Notes: generated by a model from the sequence alone, not told the origin. Counted from the stretch's first letter, positions 3,798 to 60,898 are shown. The stretch: DNA of 64,000 nucleotides from Alphaproteobacteria bacterium (GCA_013286285.1 JABDGA010000002.1:1349-65348), one strand, 5' to 3'. Made by a program: numbers and translations.

Positions 3798-3981
3798 AAG
3801 TGTGCTCCTTAAGCAATCATTGTTCGTAATTCTACCTGCGAATCAGATAAAAATCTAATCAATATTATATGGGATCATATTACCCCAATAATATTAATAT
3901 AAGATTAATATAAAAGTATAATGATAAAATAGGCCGGGCTGTGACATTATAATCGCTTGCTAGTCGTTTTGTCTCATTTAC

Positions 3982-5388
3982 TTACATCGCTTCTAGCAAC
4001 TTTTTATCCAGGCCGTAATAGGCAGCTTTATGGGTAAAGTGCGGGCGCAGGCCGGTGGATTTGAATTCGCCTACCAGGCGGCCATTCTCATCTTCGCCCT
4101 GGAATTCAAAAGTGAAAAGATCCTGCGTGATGATAACGTCGCCTTCCATGCCGACCAGCTCGGTCACGTGGGTGATGCGGCGGATACCGTCGCGCATGCG
4201 GCTGATCTGCACGATGAGATTCACGGCGCTGCTAATCTGCGTGCGCACTGCCTTGCTGGGCAGGTTGATACCGGCGAGACCGATCATGTTCTCAAGACGT
4301 GTGAGCGCCTCGCGCGGGGTATTGGCGTGCAGCGTTCCCATGGAGCCGTCATGGCCGGTATTCATGGCTTGAAGCAAGTCAATCGCCTCCGAGCCGCGCA
4401 CCTCGCCGAGGATGATGCGGTCAGGACGCATACGCAGGGCATTTTTCACCAGATCGCGCATGGTGATTTCGCCGTGGCCTTCAAGGTTGGCGGGACGGGT
4501 TTCCAGCGGCACGACGTGTGGCTGCTGCAATTGCAGCTCGGCGGCGTCCTCGATGGTGACGATGCGCTCGCCGTGATCGATCATCTGCGATATGGCGTTT
4601 AAGAGCGTGGTTTTACCGGAGCCGGTGCCGCCGGAGATGATGATGTTGAGGCGCACCGCGCCCGCGATTTTCAGCACCTGGCAGACGTTATGGGAGATGT
4701 TGCCCTGGCCGGCCATGATGTCGAGGGTGATCTTCTTCTTGGAGAACTTACGGATGGAGATGCTGCAGCCGCGAATAGCAAGCGGCGGGGCGATGACGTT
4801 AACGCGGCTGCCGTCCATGAGGCGCGCGTCGCAGATGGGGCTGGATTCATCCACGCGGCGACCTACGGCGGTCACAATGCGTTGTGCGATGCTGATGACA
4901 TGCTGGTTGTCGCGGAACTTGACCTCCGTCAGCCGGAGCTTACCCTTTTGTTCTATATACACCTGTTCAGGGCCGTTCACCATGATATCGGTGATAGTTT
5001 CATCCTGCAGGAGCGGCTCTAAGGGCCCCAGCCCCAGCATGTCGTCCACGATCTGGTTGGCAAGGAACTGCTGTTCCAACTGATTGATGAGGAGCTTCTG
5101 CTCCATCACGATTTCACCGATGAGATCGATAATCTGGCGTTTAAGATCGTCACGCGGCAGGCGGGAAGCGGTGGTGAGATCAATCTGCTCCATGAGCAAG
5201 GCGTATATTTTTTCCTTGGTGGAAGCGATTTCCGGCGCGACCTTCTCTCCTTCCTGAGGGAGGGGCTTTATTTCCTGAGGCGTAAGGCGCTCGTGACTTT
5301 CTTTGGGTTTTTCGGCAGGTGCAACTGGCGGCTCCGCGACAGGCGCAGGTGACGGCAGAGGCTCTGAGCTGCGCCGGCCAAATGCCAC
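3982..5388 (-). CDS. cpaF: Tad/Flp pilus assembly ATPase CpaF/TadA
   Basis: 468 aa secretion ATPase with Walker A 'GGTGSGKTT' and '[12 protein letters not shown]'. Lies immediately downstream of cpaE. Confidence 0.9.
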
Positions 5389-6630
5389 TTACGAGCTCCT
5401 TTTGAGCAAGGAAAATAAACGGGTGTTTTGTTTTGTTTTTTTATCTGCGCTTGTTTCGGCGAAATGTTCGCTCAAGGACTGTAATATTTTGGCGGCTGGA
5501 GCGTTTTTTGCGGTTTCCGCCAATACTTCGCCGGAAGTGGCGGCGGCATGCGCATCTACAATGAAGGGAATGTTGAAATCCACTTTCACGCCTAAGCCTT
5601 TTTCAAACTCATCACGCGCCATCTGGTGCTTGCCCGCGAGGCCGATTTTATTGGCCACGAATATCGGCGGCTTCACTTTCAGCGTATCGCGGCAGTATTC
5701 CAGGTAGCGCAGGGATTCCCGGAGTCCGGCAATGGTATATTCGGTCACGCAGATGACATGGTCGGCATGGGTGATGGCAAAGCGTGTAAACGGTGATAGG
5801 GTGCGTGGCACATCAACAATCATATGGGAAAATTTGGGACGGCACTGCTTGAACAACGTGTCTGCCGCCGCTTCATTTGCGAGGATGTTTTCTTCCAGCG
5901 GTTCTTCCGTGCTTAGGATGGAAAGGCTATCGTTTACCCTTACCATCACGCGATCCACGAACAGGCCGTCAATGCGATCCGGTTTTTCCAGCGCCTCACG
6001 CAGGCCGCGTCCAGGTTCCAGATCGAGCGCCAGTGCGACGGTGCCCAGTTGTGGGTCAAAATCAAGTAATGCGGTTTTCTGCTGCAGGCGATTGGCCAGA
6101 ATCCAAGCCATATTCACGCATACGGTGGTGGCGCCAACCCCGCCGCGCGAGCCAATCACCGTAATAATTTTGGCATCTTTTTTCATATTCTCCGGCTTTG
6201 TCGCCGGGGTTACGACTTCAGTGGCCTTAGCGTACGCGGCCTCGAGGGCGTCAAGCTTGAACGGCTTGAGCAGGTAGTTCGATATTCCGACTTCCACCAG
6301 CCAGCAATAAAAGCTATATTCATTGACTTTTCCCGAAACCATGACCGTGGTGCCGGGTTCGCAGACATCGGCAAGCGTGTCGAGGGAAGCGGGGACGGAC
6401 TCGGCGGAAGCAATATCGACAAACAACACTTTTGGCGAAGGATTGGACTTGAGGAATGTAGCGGCGGTATTGATGTCGCCAGAATGAATGATACTTTCCG
6501 GCCAGCCATGCTTCACGGCAAGCTGTTTAAGAATGGCTATGCTCTCGCCATCGCCAGAAAACGCCATGAAAGCCGGGCTGTCTTTGCCGCTTTTGTCGGT
6601 TTTATTATCCATAACAAACCCCTGCAGCAT
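5389..6630 (-). CDS. cpaE: Tad pilus assembly protein CpaE/TadZ (pseudo-receiver plus ParA/MinD-like ATPase)
   Basis: 413 aa with deviant Walker A 'GSRGGVGATT' and an N-terminal receiver-like domain. Abuts cpaF with no gap. The true start may be the internal Met at 6612. Confidence 0.85.
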   Translation of the reverse strand: MLQGFVMDNKTDKSGKDSPAFMAFSGDGESIAILKQLAVKHGWPESIIHSGDINTAATFLKSNPSPKVLFVDIASAESVPASLDTLADVCEPGTTVMVSGKVNEYSFYCWLVEVGISNYLLKPFKLDALEAAYAKATEVVTPATKPENMKKDAKIITVIGSRGGVGATTVCVNMAWILANRLQQKTALLDFDPQLGTVALALDLEPGRGLREALEKPDRIDGLFVDRVMVRVNDSLSILSTEEPLEENILANEAAADTLFKQCRPKFSHMIVDVPRTLSPFTRFAITHADHVICVTEYTIAGLRESLRYLEYCRDTLKVKPPIFVANKIGLAGKHQMARDEFEKGLGVKVDFNIPFIVDAHAAATSGEVLAETAKNAPAAKILQSLSEHFAETSADKKTKQNTRLFSLLKRSS

Positions 6631-6767
6631 GAAGCTACGGTTATTCTATGGTAAATTTAGCAGAAAATAGTTACTTTTTTATGAAGAAGGGAGGCATTAT
6701 AGCTTCTTACATTTTTGGATTATGATGAGCTATACTAGGTATGATAATAGGTTAGTCTATCATTTTA

Positions 6768-7226
6768 TTAGCCGGGGTGAAAGTATCTGCCTTTGCGCTT
6801 ATCTTGCTCAATTGCTTCTACATGGCTTGTTCTAGGTCCTTTGGGAGCGAATTTATTGCGTGCCAGTCTTTCAGCTTTTGTAATACGCTCTATATACCCA
6901 TCACGAACCAATTCTGTCATTGCTTTATCACTGGCACACAGCACATCATTCGAACCATTTTTATATGTTCCAACCCATTCTTCTTGAACGGTTTTCTCCG
7001 CTTCCTGCCTTGAGAGCTCCGGTGAGAGCCCTTGCTGTACGCCAAGTTCGGTGAAGTAGTCTATTTTTCTGATCCGTAGTGCCTCTATCACGTCCTGAAG
7101 CCTTTTTCCATCAATGGAATAGACTAATTCTCTTTCCTGGGCATCGAGAAAAGCCCTCACAGCCATACTTCCGCTGAGCCAGCCCGTTTTTATCGTTGGT
7201 ACTCTCCGGGCCAGAATAACTTCCAT
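6768..7226 (-). CDS. Hypothetical 152-aa protein; probably the downstream portion of the frameshift-split helicase gene
   Basis: AT-rich. Overlaps the helicase ORF by 37 nt in the -1 frame. Its frame is open back to the A7 run at 7255-7261. It repeats a 'GW[IL]SG' motif also present in the helicase C-terminus. Confidence 0.55.
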   Translation of the reverse strand: MEVILARRVPTIKTGWLSGSMAVRAFLDAQERELVYSIDGKRLQDVIEALRIRKIDYFTELGVQQGLSPELSRQEAEKTVQEEWVGTYKNGSNDVLCASDKAMTELVRDGYIERITKAERLARNKFAPKGPRTSHVEAIEQDKRKGRYFHPG

Positions 7227-9055
7227 CGCTTCTTTGCTGGCATAATATACGGGGTTTTTTTATTTCTATAATAATATAGTGCTATCCAATGAGCCTGTAT
7301 CTCTTGTATTGGTAGGCCTTCTCTAATTTTTTCATCTCTTAATTTTTCAAACTCGCTAATCCATGTTCTGGATGTACCTCCATATGCATTCGCGGCTGCG
7401 AGCCCACTTATCCAGCCCTTGTCATCGTCAGGTGCCCTATCGTAGGTTTGCGCCCGCTTCTGTTTATGTTCATTGCTTATTATAGTTAATGCATTGGCAT
7501 CGGTTATTAATTCAAATTGTGATACATCAATATCTGGCGGCAGTTGTTTAAACTGCCTTGTCGCCCGCGCTCGCCTTACCGCAGTTCTTGGCTCTACTCC
7601 TTCAATTACTTCAGAACAGTAAATCGGCATCATGTTAGGGTTTTCCTGATAAAGTTTTTCGGTATTTTCGTCGATAAGATTAATAACGGTTGCTATTTTG
7701 TCGGGGTTGTCTGGATCAAGGCGAAATCCGCGCCCAAAAATTTGGGTGGCTTCCACTTTGGAAAAGCGGTCAACCAGATCGATAATTATACTATCGCGTC
7801 GGCAATCATAGCCTACTTTCAGCTTGCTTGCCGATGCCAACAGCAAGATTTTGCCTTTTTCATGTAGATCAAAAATTTCATCCTCAGAATACCATTCCTT
7901 ATTACCTTCCATAAGCCTGTTTACTGTGATGGGATTTTCTTCTTTATCCGTCATCATCCCCGGACGAAGAAATGCTCCCTTAATCCCTCCGTGAACGGGA
8001 GCTATCAGCTCTATGCCTTCTTCATTTAACCATCGTTTGCTTTCGGTGTACGCGCTGTCGTCCAACATATTGTTTGCAAGTCTAACAATATCGTCAGCAT
8101 GCTGTCTGCCACCGCAGTAAATGGCTCCGTTCTGGCCGAAATAACGTTCGCTGCTATCTATGTCTCTGCCACGTAAATACGTTTCCAGAGCGCTCCTATT
8201 ACGAGCCTCGTGATTAAGAAGGATTTGTAGTTCTTTAAGGCTTAAATTACGGCCATGCTCTTTTTTAGCAAATTCATGAAATTTTTCTTCATCAATAAGG
8301 AATTTTGTTTTCAATAATACAGGGCGAACGTCACATAGATCGCCACGCTTGATGGCTTCTTTCAAGCTAAGGTTATAATAAGGAGGAAAACGCGCGAGAA
8401 TGGTTTTATCTTCCGTATATTCTGGTGTTGCAGTAACCGCAATTTGCAAACTGTCTTTGAATTTATCAACAGCTTTACCAAATCCTGAAGCGGTTGTTAC
8501 GTGTGCTTCATCAAAGCAAACCAATCCATACTCATCTGGTTTATATATTTTTCTTTCGTCTTCACGGGCGTCATCACGGCTAATGGATTGATAAGTAGTA
8601 ATAAGTACTTTTGGTTTGCGAGTAATATGTTTTCTTTTATGGTATTGAACGCCAATATCACTATTATTCCAATCTATTTTTTTACCTTGTTCATCATCTG
8701 CTTCAATAGTGGGAGCTATTTCTGGAAGAAATTCTGCAAAAGCCCGTGCTGTTTGTATAACAAGGCGTTCTGTAGGCACTACAATCATTATGCGTGGTGC
8801 ATCAGGGTTATCTTTTGTTGCTTCTAGATAACTTTCTATTAAAGCCATAAACGTTGCAGTTTTACCTACACCTGTTGGCAAAATGATGGAGCCTTTACGT
8901 TGTCCTTTTTCTAAGCCTGCGGTATAGGCATCAAACGCTTCTCTTTGCGTACCCTCACGCAAAGCGTGAATTTTGTCATGGAAAACAAATTTGTTCCATG
9001 CAAAAGCTTTTAGTTTTATTAAAAAATCCGATTCAATTTTTAAATTGAGTGACAT
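7190..9055 (-). CDS. Superfamily-2 helicase (ResIII/DEAH-type)
   Basis: 621 aa with motif I 'LPTGVGKT', motif II 'CFDEAH', motif III 'TATPE' and motif VI 'QIFGRGFR'. Very AT-rich: 15/60 GC in a hand count of 8581-8640. Confidence 0.8.
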   Translation of the reverse strand: MSLNLKIESDFLIKLKAFAWNKFVFHDKIHALREGTQREAFDAYTAGLEKGQRKGSIILPTGVGKTATFMALIESYLEATKDNPDAPRIMIVVPTERLVIQTARAFAEFLPEIAPTIEADDEQGKKIDWNNSDIGVQYHKRKHITRKPKVLITTYQSISRDDAREDERKIYKPDEYGLVCFDEAHVTTASGFGKAVDKFKDSLQIAVTATPEYTEDKTILARFPPYYNLSLKEAIKRGDLCDVRPVLLKTKFLIDEEKFHEFAKKEHGRNLSLKELQILLNHEARNRSALETYLRGRDIDSSERYFGQNGAIYCGGRQHADDIVRLANNMLDDSAYTESKRWLNEEGIELIAPVHGGIKGAFLRPGMMTDKEENPITVNRLMEGNKEWYSEDEIFDLHEKGKILLLASASKLKVGYDCRRDSIIIDLVDRFSKVEATQIFGRGFRLDPDNPDKIATVINLIDENTEKLYQENPNMMPIYCSEVIEGVEPRTAVRRARATRQFKQLPPDIDVSQFELITDANALTIISNEHKQKRAQTYDRAPDDDKGWISGLAAANAYGGTSRTWISEFEKLRDEKIREGLPIQEIQAHWIALYYYRNKKTPYIMPAKKRWKLFWPGEYQR

Positions 9056-9071
9056 ATAAAAAAGAGCATTA

Positions 9072-9401
9072 TCATCGAGAAGAGGATCCCGAAGAGCCGG
9101 TCGTAGCCGGGCTAGTGACGTTTTGCTGGGTTGCCGTCAGGTATTTCTGCACGTTAACGCTTTCGCGATCGCCGTTCTGTATATTTTGCCCTTGTCCTTT
9201 ATCCAGATCCGACGGGTTGGCTAGCTGCGCCTTTACATTGTTATAATAGGCACAGCCGAAATTGCTGAAATCGGTATTCTCATAATTATGTATGGAGTTG
9301 CCGCTCCAGTCAGGGCAGGAGCGGGTGGATTTCTGTTCCGGCGTGCAGCTTCCGGCAGATAGCAGAATAGCAATGAGCAGCAATGAAGATGACAAACGCA
9401 T
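9072..9401 (-). CDS. cpaD: Pilus assembly lipoprotein CpaD-like
   Basis: 109 aa with a signal peptide and Cys ('LLSAGSC'). The 'GCAYYNNVKAQLANPSDL' segment resembles the CpaD family. Lies directly downstream of cpaC. Confidence 0.6.
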   Translation of the reverse strand: MRLSSSLLLIAILLSAGSCTPEQKSTRSCPDWSGNSIHNYENTDFSNFGCAYYNNVKAQLANPSDLDKGQGQNIQNGDRESVNVQKYLTATQQNVTSPATTGSSGSSSR

Positions 9402-15460: not shown

Positions 15461-16393
15461 ATGAGTGATATATCCGCCTCTATCATCAAAGACTTACGTG
15501 AGATGACCGGTGCAGGCATGATGGACTGCAAAAAGGCGCTGACCGAGACCAAGGGTGTCATACATGAGGCTGTAGACTGGCTGCGCAAAAAAGGCTTGGC
15601 TTCGGCTGCGAAAAAAGCCGGGCGTGTCGCTGCCGAAGGGTTGGTTGCCGTAAGCAGCGCAGGCAATGTTGGCGCTATTATTGAGCTGAATGCGGAAACG
15701 GATTTTGTCGCCCGTAATGATCAATTCCAGGCACTGGCAAAAAACATCGCGGATGCAGCGCTCAAAGATGGCAAGGATATTGAGCAGCTTAAGCAGGCTA
15801 AGGATACATCCGGCGTAGCGGTTTCCGAGCAGGTCGCCCAGCTCATTGGCAAGATCGGAGAAAACATGAACCTGCGCCGTAGCGCAAGGCTTGAAGTGGC
15901 AAATGGTGTCGTGGCTACCTATATCCATAGTGCCATAGCTCCGGGATTGGGTAAGATTGGCGTGCTGGTAGCCCTTGAATCCACCGGCGACAAGGCAAAG
16001 CTCGAAGCGGTCGGCAAGCAAATCGCCATGCATATTGCCGCTGCCAAGCCAGAAGCGCTGGCGGTAAGCGATGTAGCACCGGAAAGACTTGCCCGTGAAC
16101 GCAATGTATTCAAGGAACAGGCGATTGCCTCCGGAAAACCGGCGGAAATTGCGGAGAAGATGGTGGAAGGCCGTGTACGTAAATATTATGAGGAAGTGGT
16201 GCTGCTTGAACAGATCTATGTGATCGATAACAAGACCAAGGTGTCTCAAGTAGTCGCCGATGCTGCAAAGACGGTAGGCGCGCCGGTAAAGCTCGTTGCT
16301 TTCGCACATTTCAAGCTGGGTGACGGCATTGAAAAGCAGGAATCGGATTTTGCTGCGGAAGTGGCTGCCACTGCGTCCGGTGCAGCGGCGTAA
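15461..16393 (+). CDS. tsf: Elongation factor Ts
   Basis: 310 aa with 'IKDLREMTGAGMMDCKKAL' and 'ELNAETDFVARN'. Confidence 0.95.
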   Translation: MSDISASIIKDLREMTGAGMMDCKKALTETKGVIHEAVDWLRKKGLASAAKKAGRVAAEGLVAVSSAGNVGAIIELNAETDFVARNDQFQALAKNIADAALKDGKDIEQLKQAKDTSGVAVSEQVAQLIGKIGENMNLRRSARLEVANGVVATYIHSAIAPGLGKIGVLVALESTGDKAKLEAVGKQIAMHIAAAKPEALAVSDVAPERLARERNVFKEQAIASGKPAEIAEKMVEGRVRKYYEEVVLLEQIYVIDNKTKVSQVVADAAKTVGAPVKLVAFAHFKLGDGIEKQESDFAAEVAATASGAAA

Positions 16394-16403
16394 AGTATTA
16401 TAA

Positions 16404-16440
16404 GGCGTATGGGACATGTATGGAGATAATCCCATACGCC
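16404..16440 (+). promoter_or_regulatory. 11-bp perfect stem-loop spanning the queE ribosome-binding region and start codon
   Basis: ggcgtatggga (16404-16414) pairs with tcccatacgcc (16430-16440). The 15-nt loop contains the queE ATG (16416). The structure starts 11 nt after the tsf stop. Confidence 0.5.
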
Positions 16441-17075
16441 AGCCGCTTTCTGGTGACGGTCTGACGCTCAATATCCAATCTATATTTGCCACTTTGCAGG
16501 GAGAAGGCCCCTATGTAGGCTGGCCAGCGATATTCATACGCTTAGGCGGCTGCAACCTCGCCTGCAGTTTTTGCGATACGGAATTTGAAAGCTTCCAGCC
16601 ATTAAAGCTTGGCGATATCCTTGATACAGTCAGACGACTAACAACCAGCAACCAACGACTGATTGTCATCACCGGCGGTGAGCCGTTCCTCCAGCCGATA
16701 GAACCTTTATGCACACGCCTGCTGGAGGCCGGATTCAAGGTGCAGATTGAAACCAACGGTACGTTATACCGCGAATTGCCTGATGCAGTGGATATTGTCT
16801 GTTCACCGAAAAATACGGGCAAAGGGTATTTCCCTATAAGGCCGGATCTGCTTGCACGGGTAAATGCCTTCAAGTTCCTTATATCGGCGCAGAACACGGA
16901 TTACTCCATGATTGGCGAAGTAGGGCAGGGCCAGCGCGTTCCGGTCTATGTGCAGCCGATGGATGAATATGATGCGGAGAAAAACCGTGCCAACTTACAG
17001 CATGCTACTGATCTGGCCATGGAGCATGGTTATCGTCTATGCCTGCAACTTCATAAGATTGCAGGTATTGAATGA
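16416..17075 (+). CDS. queE: 7-carboxy-7-deazaguanine synthase (radical SAM)
   Basis: 219 aa with 'QGEGPYVG' and the cluster '[11 protein letters not shown]'. Confidence 0.9.
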
Positions 17076-24410: not shown

Positions 24411-24440
24411 GGTGTGTGTAAAACGCCTGCGTTAGCCGTC

Positions 24441-24464
24441 ATACCGCGGCAAAGACCGCGGTAT
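24441..24464. repeat. Single-hairpin member of the intergenic hairpin-repeat family (may also act as a terminator)
   Basis: gtcATACCGCGGcaaagaCCGCGGTATct. It has the same 'gtcat-stem-loop-stem-atct' frame as hairpin 1 of the elements at 28297 and 47013. Confidence 0.5.
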
Positions 24465-24947
24465 CTATTCGTCATTCTGGTAGTGGCCTTTTTCCGGCTG
24501 GGGCTGCCATTTGTGGGACTTGGCGCGCGCATCGTCAATCTCGCTCTGTGTCATGCTCCAGGCTTCATCATTACGCAGGCTGAATGCCTCGCTGCTGCCG
24601 TTTTTGGTGGCCAGATCGAACCACATATAGGACAGCACCTTGTCCATCTGCATGCCGTTGCCGCCGCGATACACAAACCCCATGGCGATCTGCCCATCCA
24701 CATATCCCTGCATGGCGGAGCGATAGTACCATTTGGCGGCTTCTTTTTCGCTTTGCACGACGCCTTCGCCTTTTAAATATGCTTCCCCCAGATCATACTG
24801 GGCTTCGGGATCGCCCTTGTCCGCCTGGACGCGCAGCCGGGCAATATCGGCGCTATCCAGATTCCCGTCACTGTCATATGCAAATGCACCTGCAGGACAT
24901 AAAGAATACAGAATCACTAATAAAAGGGTGGCGATAATAAACCTCAT
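24465..24947 (-). CDS. Secreted Sel1-repeat protein (copy 1)
   Basis: Sel1/TPR-like repeats 'AQYDLGEAYLKGEGVVQSEKEAAKWYYRSAMQG'. Signal peptide from the Met at 24947, whose ATGA overlaps the upstream paralogue's stop. The longer track ORF starts at 24989. Confidence 0.8.
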   Translation of the reverse strand: MRFIIATLLLVILYSLCPAGAFAYDSDGNLDSADIARLRVQADKGDPEAQYDLGEAYLKGEGVVQSEKEAAKWYYRSAMQGYVDGQIAMGFVYRGGNGMQMDKVLSYMWFDLATKNGSSEAFSLRNDEAWSMTQSEIDDARAKSHKWQPQPEKGHYQNDE

Positions 24948-25435
24948 TCGGACTCTCCGTATTGTTTGGGGGGCGGTTGTGGTTTCCATTCATCGGATTT
25001 CTTACGGGCTTCTTCTATTTCATGCAGTGTCATGGACCATGCAAGCTCATTGCGCATCCACAAGGCACGATCATCGCCGTTTTTTGTCGCAAGATCAAGC
25101 CACATGTAGGACTGCACCTTATCCATGGGAATCCCGCCGCCGCCGCGATAGACGAATCCCATGGCAATCTGCGCATCCGGATAATCCTGCATGGCGGAGC
25201 GGTAGTACCACTTGGCGGCTTCTTTTTCGCTTTGCACGACGCCTTCACCCTTTAAATACGCTTCTGCGAGATCATACTGCGCCTCAGGGTCTCCCTTTTC
25301 CGCCTGGATACGCAGGTTGGCGATATAGTCTGGTTTGGTGAATTCAGTATCATAGGCATCATAAGCAAAAGAAAGTACCGGGAATGCCTGCATAGCGATG
25401 GACAGTGCAGCAAAATAAATGCAAAATCTTTTCAT
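24944..25435 (-). CDS. Secreted Sel1-repeat protein (copy 2, tandem paralogue)
   Basis: 163 aa with a signal peptide 'MKRFCIYFAALSIAMQAFPVLSFA'. The core is nearly identical to copy 1. Confidence 0.8.
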   Translation of the reverse strand: MKRFCIYFAALSIAMQAFPVLSFAYDAYDTEFTKPDYIANLRIQAEKGDPEAQYDLAEAYLKGEGVVQSEKEAAKWYYRSAMQDYPDAQIAMGFVYRGGGGIPMDKVQSYMWLDLATKNGDDRALWMRNELAWSMTLHEIEEARKKSDEWKPQPPPKQYGESE

Positions 25436-40944: not shown

Positions 40945-41313
40945 TTATGATTCGTTATCGTCGAAGAATTTGGGTTGAAATGTGTTAGCAAAGATAGCGG
41001 CTGGTTTGGGAACAGGTACATCAATCATATTATATAGAGCTTTCATTTCATCACGAACTTCCTGTGAAGGGATGCCACGCCCGGCTACAATTACAGTGCC
41101 GTAATCTGCTGGTTTAAAATTCTCGCTAGCTTGCATTTTTGCAAACATTTTTTTTAGATTCTTCCCTAATAATTTGATGTAGGAATATACTTGATCACCA
41201 AACATATTAGTGCCTTGAAGAAGCACTACGACTTCAGTTTCTAAATATTCATCGCTCACTAACTCAGGTGATACATTTTTACCAAAGCCAGGTGTTGACC
41301 AGTTGTTTTTCAT
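40945..41313 (-). CDS. Hypothetical protein, paralogue A of an unknown ~120-aa family (AT-rich copy)
   Basis: 122 aa. About half the residues are identical by eye to 41885-42244 ('FGK.VSP.LV', 'EVVVLL.G.N.FGD.VY', 'QASENFKP..YG', 'QPKFFD'). GC 20/60 at 41161-41220. Confidence 0.6.
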   Translation of the reverse strand: MKNNWSTPGFGKNVSPELVSDEYLETEVVVLLQGTNMFGDQVYSYIKLLGKNLKKMFAKMQASENFKPADYGTVIVAGRGIPSQEVRDEMKALYNMIDVPVPKPAAIFANTFQPKFFDDNES

Positions 41314-41884: not shown

Positions 41885-42244
41885 TTATTCGTCAAAAAAT
41901 TTCGGCTGGGTTGTATTAATATGGAAGGGAGGATTGGGTTTGGGGATATCGGTAATTTCATGTTCGCTATGCATCGCCGCTTTGACTTCAGGCGGCGGTT
42001 CGCCGCGGCCCGAGGCGACGACATCACCATACTCTGAAGGCTTAAAGTTTTCTGAGGCCTGGATTTTCCGGAATATCTCCTTTAGGTTGGCGCAGGTCAG
42101 TTGCAAGTAGCAATACACCTTGTCGCCGAACAAATTATTGCCTTCCAGCAGCACTACCACTTCCGCGTCCAGAAGTCCGTCATCCACCAGATCGGGGGAG
42201 ACGTATTTGCCGAAAGCGGGCGCAATCCATTTATTTTTTGTCAT
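41885..42244 (-). CDS. Hypothetical protein, paralogue B of the unknown ~120-aa family (GC-rich copy)
   Basis: 119 aa. GC 35/60 at 42001-42060. Lies 8 nt downstream of the 86-aa ORF. Confidence 0.6.
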   Translation of the reverse strand: MTKNKWIAPAFGKYVSPDLVDDGLLDAEVVVLLEGNNLFGDKVYCYLQLTCANLKEIFRKIQASENFKPSEYGDVVASGRGEPPPEVKAAMHSEHEITDIPKPNPPFHINTTQPKFFDE

Positions 42245-60519: not shown

Positions 60520-60676
60520 TTTTATCTATTGGCAGGTGATGACAAGCTTGGCGATTATGTCTGGGACATTGTTAGTCTTACGTCTTCTTTATATCTCTTT
60601 CGGATATGGAACGTAACCTGTTTATGTGCTATATATTATACTTCAAGTTAGTGAATGACTAAGGGGGGGGGATTTT

Positions 60677-60898
60677 ATGAAAAATTCCGTAAAATTAGTT
60701 TATGCTATCACAATCTTGAGTCTGGTGGCAGGATGTGGAGACACTCCCGGTCGCCGTGCGGCTACAGGTGCCGGTATTGGTGCGGGAGCCGGTGCCGTTG
60801 GGGCAGTGCTACTCGATGCTAACCCAGTCGCTGGTGCGTTGATCGGGGGGGGCAGCGGGGGCGGTGACTGGAGCAGCAACCAACAAGAAGCAAATTAA
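60677..60898 (+). CDS. Small glycine-zipper lipoprotein (frame uncertain after the G8 tract)
   Basis: 73 aa with lipobox 'LVAGCG' and 'GAGIGAGAGAVGAVLL..GALIGG'. A G8 run lies at 60845-60852 inside the gene and a G9 run at 60663-60671 just upstream of the ATG. Confidence 0.6.
   Translation: MKNSVKLVYAITILSLVAGCGDTPGRRAATGAGIGAGAGAVGAVLLDANPVAGALIGGGSGGGDWSSNQQEAN

Follow-up and report, generated by a model that had tools for sequence, protein, structure and literature searches.

We analysed a 64,000-nucleotide stretch of DNA from Alphaproteobacteria bacterium (GCA_013286285.1 JABDGA010000002.1:1349-65348), hereafter the window, in which a superfamily 2 (SF2) helicase gene on the minus strand lies between cpaD and cpaE of a tad/cpa operon and is split into two open reading frames (ORFs) at a run of seven adenines (A7). 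The upstream frame, ORF1 (621 amino acids (aa); 7190..9055), encodes an SF2 helicase core in full, then 59 residues from the start of a C-terminal repeat, and finally a 21-codon out-of-frame tail. The downstream frame (6768..7259, also on the minus strand) opens just past a TAA at 7262-7260 and encodes the last 14 residues of the same repeat, a second repeat, and a basic tail. The two frames are the remains of one ancestral ORF, which was probably broken by a recent one-base deletion in the A run.

The A7 occupies minus-strand positions 7261-7255, seen on the plus strand as T7 at 7255-7261, within the minus-strand letters ...TAT AGA AAT AAA AAA ACC CCG TAT ATT ATG... (approximately 7270-7240). 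Past the run, the ORF1 frame continues for 21 further codons (TPYIMPAKKRWKLFWPGEYQR) to a stop at 7192-7190. The -1 frame has its TAA at the start of the run; from there 163 codons (KNPVYYASKEAMEVIL...) follow without interruption until the stop at 6770-6768, a stretch that includes the 152-aa ORF2, whose ATG lies at 7226. Adding one A to the run yields a fused protein of 762 aa with the junction ...YYYRNKKNPVYYASKEAMEVILARR.... An earlier, sequence-only reading of this DNA had already described a helicase split at the A7, the equivalent plus-strand T7, an extension of 21 codons ending at 7190, a TAA at the start of the run followed by an open frame into a 152-aa ORF, and fusion by one extra A; all of its coordinates agree with the sequence, and only its estimate of ~770 aa for the fused protein needed correction. 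Just 1/20,000 shuffles of 6768-7262 keep a frame of such length open, so the open frame downstream of the A7 is not due to chance. The run is unremarkable as such, since the window contains 22 homopolymers of at least 7 nt, 19 of them A/T runs. We infer that the ancestral run was probably A8. The split matters mainly for annotation: ORF1 and ORF2 belong to one frameshifted gene and should not be listed as a helicase and a separate hypothetical protein.

The motor core of this gene is intact. Pfam matched the fused protein to ResIII (PF04851; 1.2e-26), DEAD (PF00270; 2.5e-15), and SNF2-related (2e-10) models, with the ResIII and DEAD scores above the gathering threshold, and the phage helicase family phrog_16 matches fused residues 37-507 (1.4e-40). 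ORF1 carries SF2 motifs I (PTGVGKT; 8878-8858), II (DEAH; 8512-8501), III (TATP; 8434-8423), and VI (QIFGRGFR; 7744-7721), all on the minus strand; by these motifs and its Pfam score the protein is an SF2 helicase of the ResIII/DEAD type. Comparison with PDB sequences gave a best match that was weak and partial, and no curated NCBIfam family was reached, the best (EcoAI) scoring 65 bits against a cut-off of 550 and covering the N-terminal motor region only. We rejected an identity as a restriction enzyme or defence system, because the PADLOC and NCBIfam matches are partial, lie in the N-terminal motor lobe, and fall far under their cut-offs. A Type I/III HsdR/Res subunit was also rejected: its hallmarks, namely a full-length curated match, a nuclease domain, and adjacent methyltransferase or specificity genes, do not come together here, the EcoAI match being confined to the N-terminal motor region and the neighbours being cpaD and cpaE. 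Neither the gene annotation of the window nor the profile matches revealed a methylase or nuclease partner of the helicase.

A homologue search covering 5.8 billion proteins recovered ~45 family members with 37-55% identity, mostly from uncultured Alphaproteobacteria or 'Rickettsiales' metagenome-assembled genomes (MAGs). These homologues are single uninterrupted ORFs of 700-1100 aa, in which a conserved ~545-aa core is followed by a variable C-terminal array; many members have 1-6 tandem repeats of ~80 aa with the pattern P.K..W.SG..L...Y.G....F..L.....K......G.....A...V...WVG.Y.......ASP.AI.EL. A conserved basic tail, FAEKVGKR.IAPGS..LKRTGR, closes several homologues, and is similar to the tail of the window protein (AERLARNKFAPKG...KRKGR; 6908-6771), which is read in the shifted frame. 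The window protein has two repeats, again on the minus strand: repeat 1 (7215..7432; fused residues 542-614) is cut by the frameshift after residue 600, so that its last 14 residues (7256-7215) are read in the shifted frame, and repeat 2 (6909..7199; fused residues 620-716) is intact. The GW[IL]SG motifs that the sequence-only reading had picked out on both sides of the junction are real, and are the starts of these two repeats.

Homology to the family runs across the junction. A hidden Markov model (HMM) of the repeat, 80 positions long, from whose training the window sequence was left out, has two matches in the fused protein, at residues 542-612 (HMM 1-78/80, E = 1.2e-11) and over an envelope of 620-716, and the shift point K600|N601 falls at about HMM position 66. 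Beyond this point the shifted-frame 'NPVYYASKEAME' aligns with the conserved repeat end '..lcaSPeaia', the aligned residues VYYASKEAME being readable only in the shifted frame, and BLASTP alignments of the fused C-terminus with homologues P0002 and P0003 continue unbroken through the junction. The 21 out-of-frame codons have no counterpart in homologues, whereas the shifted frame matches both by HMM and by alignment. Together with the uninterrupted homologues, these matches establish the single ancestral ORF, restored by one A, that had earlier been proposed; no homologue ends like the 621-aa ORF with a separate gene downstream.

The split is peculiar to the window. Among family loci fetched from genomes and metagenomes, none has a frame change at the corresponding point and none places the repeats in a gene of their own behind one for the helicase core, and no homologue has Lys-Lys or an A run at the split position. 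A 26-nt pattern ending in the A run had no match in JGI metagenome contigs, and no second copy of the A7 allele was found in the protein and metagenome collections searched.

Structure prediction places the break inside a domain. AlphaFold2, supplied with 30 homologous repeat segments, modelled the shifted-frame product (pLDDT 83, pTM 0.68). In this prediction every repeat, repeat 2 included, begins with helices, continues with a beta-hairpin, and closes with a terminal helix, and the first 18 shifted-frame residues provide repeat 1 with its second hairpin strand and its terminal helix; in this placement the A7, which codes Lys599-Lys600, would encode the hairpin turn, and the break would divide one domain. 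Foldseek comparison of the repeat model with the PDB gave nothing significant (best E = 0.046), and the weak matches, mostly winged-helix regulators, are a hint only. Pfam has no model for the ~80-aa repeat, which is a new, uncharacterised domain. It also occurs in free-standing two-repeat proteins of ~190-205 aa (P0191-P0332); a profile search with the repeat gave 333 representatives at E <= 1e-3 and 50% clustering, and a word-indexed search with the free-standing proteins gave just 3 proteins. A useful by-product of this analysis is an uncharacterised helicase family with a variable array of a new repeat domain.

The helicase gene is the only gene in a low-GC insertion of ~2.3-2.4 kb in the cpaD-cpaE spacer (6675..9071, minus strand; ends approximate). 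Between the stop codon of cpaD (109 aa; 9072..9401; PF09476) and the helicase start codon there are only 16 bp, and cpaE (413 aa; 5389..6630) lies downstream of the insertion; cpaD and cpaE are both on the minus strand. The gene has a GC content of 0.41 and a third-position GC content (GC3) of 0.33, against ~0.52 and ~0.57 for its neighbours, and this difference in GC3 marks it as foreign. The closest syntenic relatives found, L032 and the 'Rickettsiales bacterium' MAG L033, encode CpaE proteins 70-73% identical to that of the window and share the gene order rpsB-astB-EAL-cpaB-cpaC-cpaD-cpaE-cpaF, which in L033 extends to isocitrate lyase; their cpaD-cpaE spacers, of 217 bp and 142 bp respectively, contain no helicase. 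A spacer motif upstream of cpaE, GTAAC.(G/A)TTTT.TG.TAA(A)TTT (6653..6674, minus strand), is retained downstream of the insertion and recurs in L032 (~5860-5890) and L033 (~5930-5960), the three spacers being otherwise divergent. This motif may serve cpaE as a regulatory or promoter element, or the tad operon as an internal promoter or operator. From the syntenic relatives without a helicase and the retained motif we conclude that the insertion is lineage-specific and consists of a single foreign gene, a clean case of such a gene placed in the cpaD-cpaE spacer of a tad operon. No recognisable ends of a mobile element were found around the insert; the repeats present there are short and due to chance.

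Other members of the family are singletons in unrelated neighbourhoods. One homologue (P0016; L031 5100-15700) is carried by an integrative conjugative element, where its neighbours on the two sides are an integrase/AlpA module, ArdC, and the TrwC relaxase; this setting and the conserved Arg/Lys-rich C-terminal tail raise the possibility that helicases of the family travel with, or through, conjugation machinery. Two further loci are broken: in L034 an in-frame TAA within the core (3900-4010) leaves ORFs of 340 and 430 aa, and in L035 the DUF4096 transposase of an insertion sequence (IS) has entered after residue 427 (1985-2840). Because these two carry unrelated lesions, we regard the helicase family as dispensable and readily decaying, and the pattern across the family is that of a horizontally moving gene prone to decay.

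The explanation that we favour, at a probability of about 0.6, is a recent A8-to-A7 deletion that truncated this foreign, dispensable helicase gene. Replication slippage would have removed one A from an A8 in a horizontally acquired, stand-alone SF2 helicase gene between cpaD and cpaE; since this deletion would lie where the hairpin of repeat 1 turns, the chief product would be a 621-aa protein with its ATPase/helicase core intact and repeat 1 broken, and without repeat 2 and the conserved basic tail. We take the change to be a real mutation rather than an error, and the truncation presumably impairs helicase function. A small full-length fraction could still be made by unprogrammed slippage, either -1 ribosomal slippage on U-AAA-AAA or addition of an A by RNA polymerase; by analogy with known slippery sites, such low-level restoration of the frame is plausible. 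The event appears recent, since the A7 is the sole lesion, the downstream frame is fully open, and the family profile is still matched. A young pseudogene, or a truncated allele of a dispensable foreign gene, is the best description; the downstream 163 codons contain no extra stops or indels that would mark further decay, so that if the gene is a pseudogene it is a very recent one.

Several points weigh against this interpretation. The A7 may be a consensus error, or one state of an A7/A8 mixture. The second assembly that carries the A7, a Logan contig, was probably built from the same reads as the deposited assembly. A sole lesion followed by 163 intact codons would fit continued selection on the downstream frame, or an error, equally well. 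Finally, slippage into the -1 frame on X-AAA-AAA has been documented in E. coli (PMC1851650), and therefore the full-length protein is perhaps not wholly lost. Four causes had been left open by the sequence-only reading, namely a recent inactivating frameshift, a homopolymer sequencing error, slippage-based phase variation, and transcriptional or -1 ribosomal slippage; the evidence favours the first, as an inactivating or truncating deletion, makes the second less likely, and disfavours phase variation and programmed recoding. If the frameshift is real, an acquired gene has been caught at the very onset of decay. The event is of an ordinary kind and of low interest, and looks like an ordinary gene-breaking mutation rather than a designed switch; the repeat domain family and the tad-operon insertion are mildly more interesting than the frameshift.

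An error of sequencing or assembly, in which the genome is truly A8 and the 762-aa gene intact, is in our view unlikely. Homopolymers are classic sites of indel error, and a sole lesion with an intact downstream frame and a perfectly conserved architecture is exactly the outcome that an error would produce. However, the Logan assembly of SRR8423047 carries both ORFs of the split helicase and is 100% identical over 5,621 bp, A7 included; its probable origin in the same reads means that an assembler artefact is excluded and a systematic read error is not, and for a systematic short-read error a length of 7-8 nt would be short. Of the 21 further homopolymers that reach 7 nt, those in ORFs break no gene, and the lengths of neighbouring genes agree with those in L032 and L033, which argues that the assembly is not generally prone to homopolymer errors.

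Phase variation, in which replication slippage would toggle a selected contingency switch between A7 (off, or motor-only) and A8 (full length), is improbable. In some pathogens the ResIII-type helicases that belong to restriction systems undergo phase variation, and here the break falls exactly in a homopolymer and the downstream frame is preserved. Against this, the A7/A8 is short compared with typical contingency tracts, its Lys-Lys or A run is conserved in no homologue, tract-length variants are absent from the collections searched, neither a methylase or nuclease partner nor any other restriction-modification context was found, and it is not evident what switching would do for a foreign gene so recently inserted. 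That the A7 is a working switch, by which a foreign helicase embedded in the tad pilus operon and co-transcribed with it alternates between two forms, we consider slightly more doubtful; if it were, low-frequency slippage or reversible A7/A8 variation would yield a motor-only form and a form with the uncharacterised, winged-helix-like repeat array and basic tail.

Two poly-G tracts lie elsewhere in the window, in a tiny surface-protein gene. A G9 run (60663-60671, plus strand) occupies the Shine-Dalgarno position 5 nt upstream of ATG 60677, which opens an ORF for a 73-aa glycine-zipper lipoprotein (MKNSVKLVYAITILSLVAGC...), and a G8 run inside this ORF (60845-60852, plus strand) codes GGG. As two long poly-G tracts in one such gene, they look more like a phase-variation candidate than the A7 does.

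Programmed or selected recoding, for which we took C. rodentium tssM1 and dnaX as models, would produce the 621-aa and 762-aa isoforms at a set ratio by transcriptional slippage or by -1 frameshifting on U-AAA-AAA, and seems to us slightly less credible than phase variation. The 0-frame U-AAA-AAA-A is of the X-AAA-AAA type that supports -1 frameshifting in E. coli (PMC1851650), a ribosome slipping to -1 would make exactly the protein that A8 encodes, and split genes rescued at A runs have precedents (PMC4256274, PMC1088944). As a heptamer, U_AAA_AAA is near-canonical with respect to X_XXY_YYZ, and the P-site would retain 2/3 pairs. Yet neither the split nor the A run is present in any homologue, and the A7 is below the demonstrated lengths for bacterial transcriptional slippage (A8/A9 in IS elements and dnaX; A11 in tssM1). 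There is no stimulatory RNA structure downstream: the minimum free energy of 7262-7150 (113 nt) has z = +0.80, and 157/200 shuffles fold at least equally well. Rfam had no match in the window, and no Shine-Dalgarno-like (AGGAGG-like) sequence is visible upstream of the A7. The break, moreover, is predicted to lie mid-hairpin within a domain and not at a module boundary.

Least probable of all is a functional fission, with ORF1 (motor) and ORF2 (one repeat and the tail, from ATG 7226) translated as two subunits: the repeat does occur as free-standing two-repeat proteins of ~190-205 aa, one of which (P0233) adjoins no helicase and so indicates that the module can work alone, and the first 37 nt of ORF2, counted from ATG 7226, lie within the end of ORF1, making coupling possible, with an AAGAAG stretch 4-9 nt upstream of the ATG; but these purines match a Shine-Dalgarno sequence poorly, no homologous locus pairs a helicase-core gene with a separate repeat gene, and ATG 7226 is predicted to lie within the last helix of repeat 1, in which case both products would carry broken domain fragments.

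Other candidates for homopolymer-split genes in the window were screened with Pfam at 11 junctions. Those that Pfam resolved were rejected as split genes, as they join unrelated domains and are separate genes; on the junctions 24414-25341 and 15494-16492 there was no Pfam match on either. The window also contains two paralogous small ORFs close together on the minus strand, at 40945-41313 and 41885-42244 (122 and 119 aa, with N-termini MKNNWSTPGFGKNVSPELV... and MTKNKWIAPAFGKYVSPDLV...); one of the pair is much lower in GC (0.38 vs 0.49), and the spacer between them is also low in GC.

Several known systems can be compared with the split gene. The helicase shares motifs I, II (DEAH), III, and VI with SF2 ResIII/DEAD helicases, and differs from them in adding a C-terminal array of the uncharacterised ~80-aa repeat, which is not in Pfam. 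Its U-AAA-AAA has the same form as the C-AAA-AAA of pDEST17, which allows -1 ribosomal frameshifting in E. coli, and the A-AAA-AAG of E. coli dnaX (PMC1851650); as at such sites, tandem or single tRNA-Lys slippage would give exactly ...KKNPVYY.... E. coli dnaX, however, needs an upstream Shine-Dalgarno-like element and a downstream hairpin (PMC1851650), neither of which is present at the A7. In C. rodentium tssM1, too, the gene is interrupted just past an A run and an A added to the mRNA restores the C-terminal domain to give products of two lengths; there the run is A11, slippage reaches 20-25%, and both forms are required (PMC4256274), whereas here the run is A7, it is not conserved, and the break falls inside a domain. 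The slippage sites of T. thermophilus dnaX and of IS elements likewise join two frames at an A run, of A9 or A8, and are conserved among homologous elements (PMC1088944), in contrast to the 7-nt run described here, which is unique to one lineage; in many genomes, A/T runs within coding sequence are visibly selected against from ~9 nt (Baranov et al. 2005, PMC1088944). The usual frameshift pseudogene differs from the split helicase, which has just one lesion and keeps its downstream frame complete, so that the event is either very young or not a true mutation. In other respects the helicase resembles homopolymer frameshift pseudogenes: a run has changed by one base, homologues are intact, the out-of-frame tail is non-homologous, the gene is foreign and dispensable, and other members of its family carry independent lesions.

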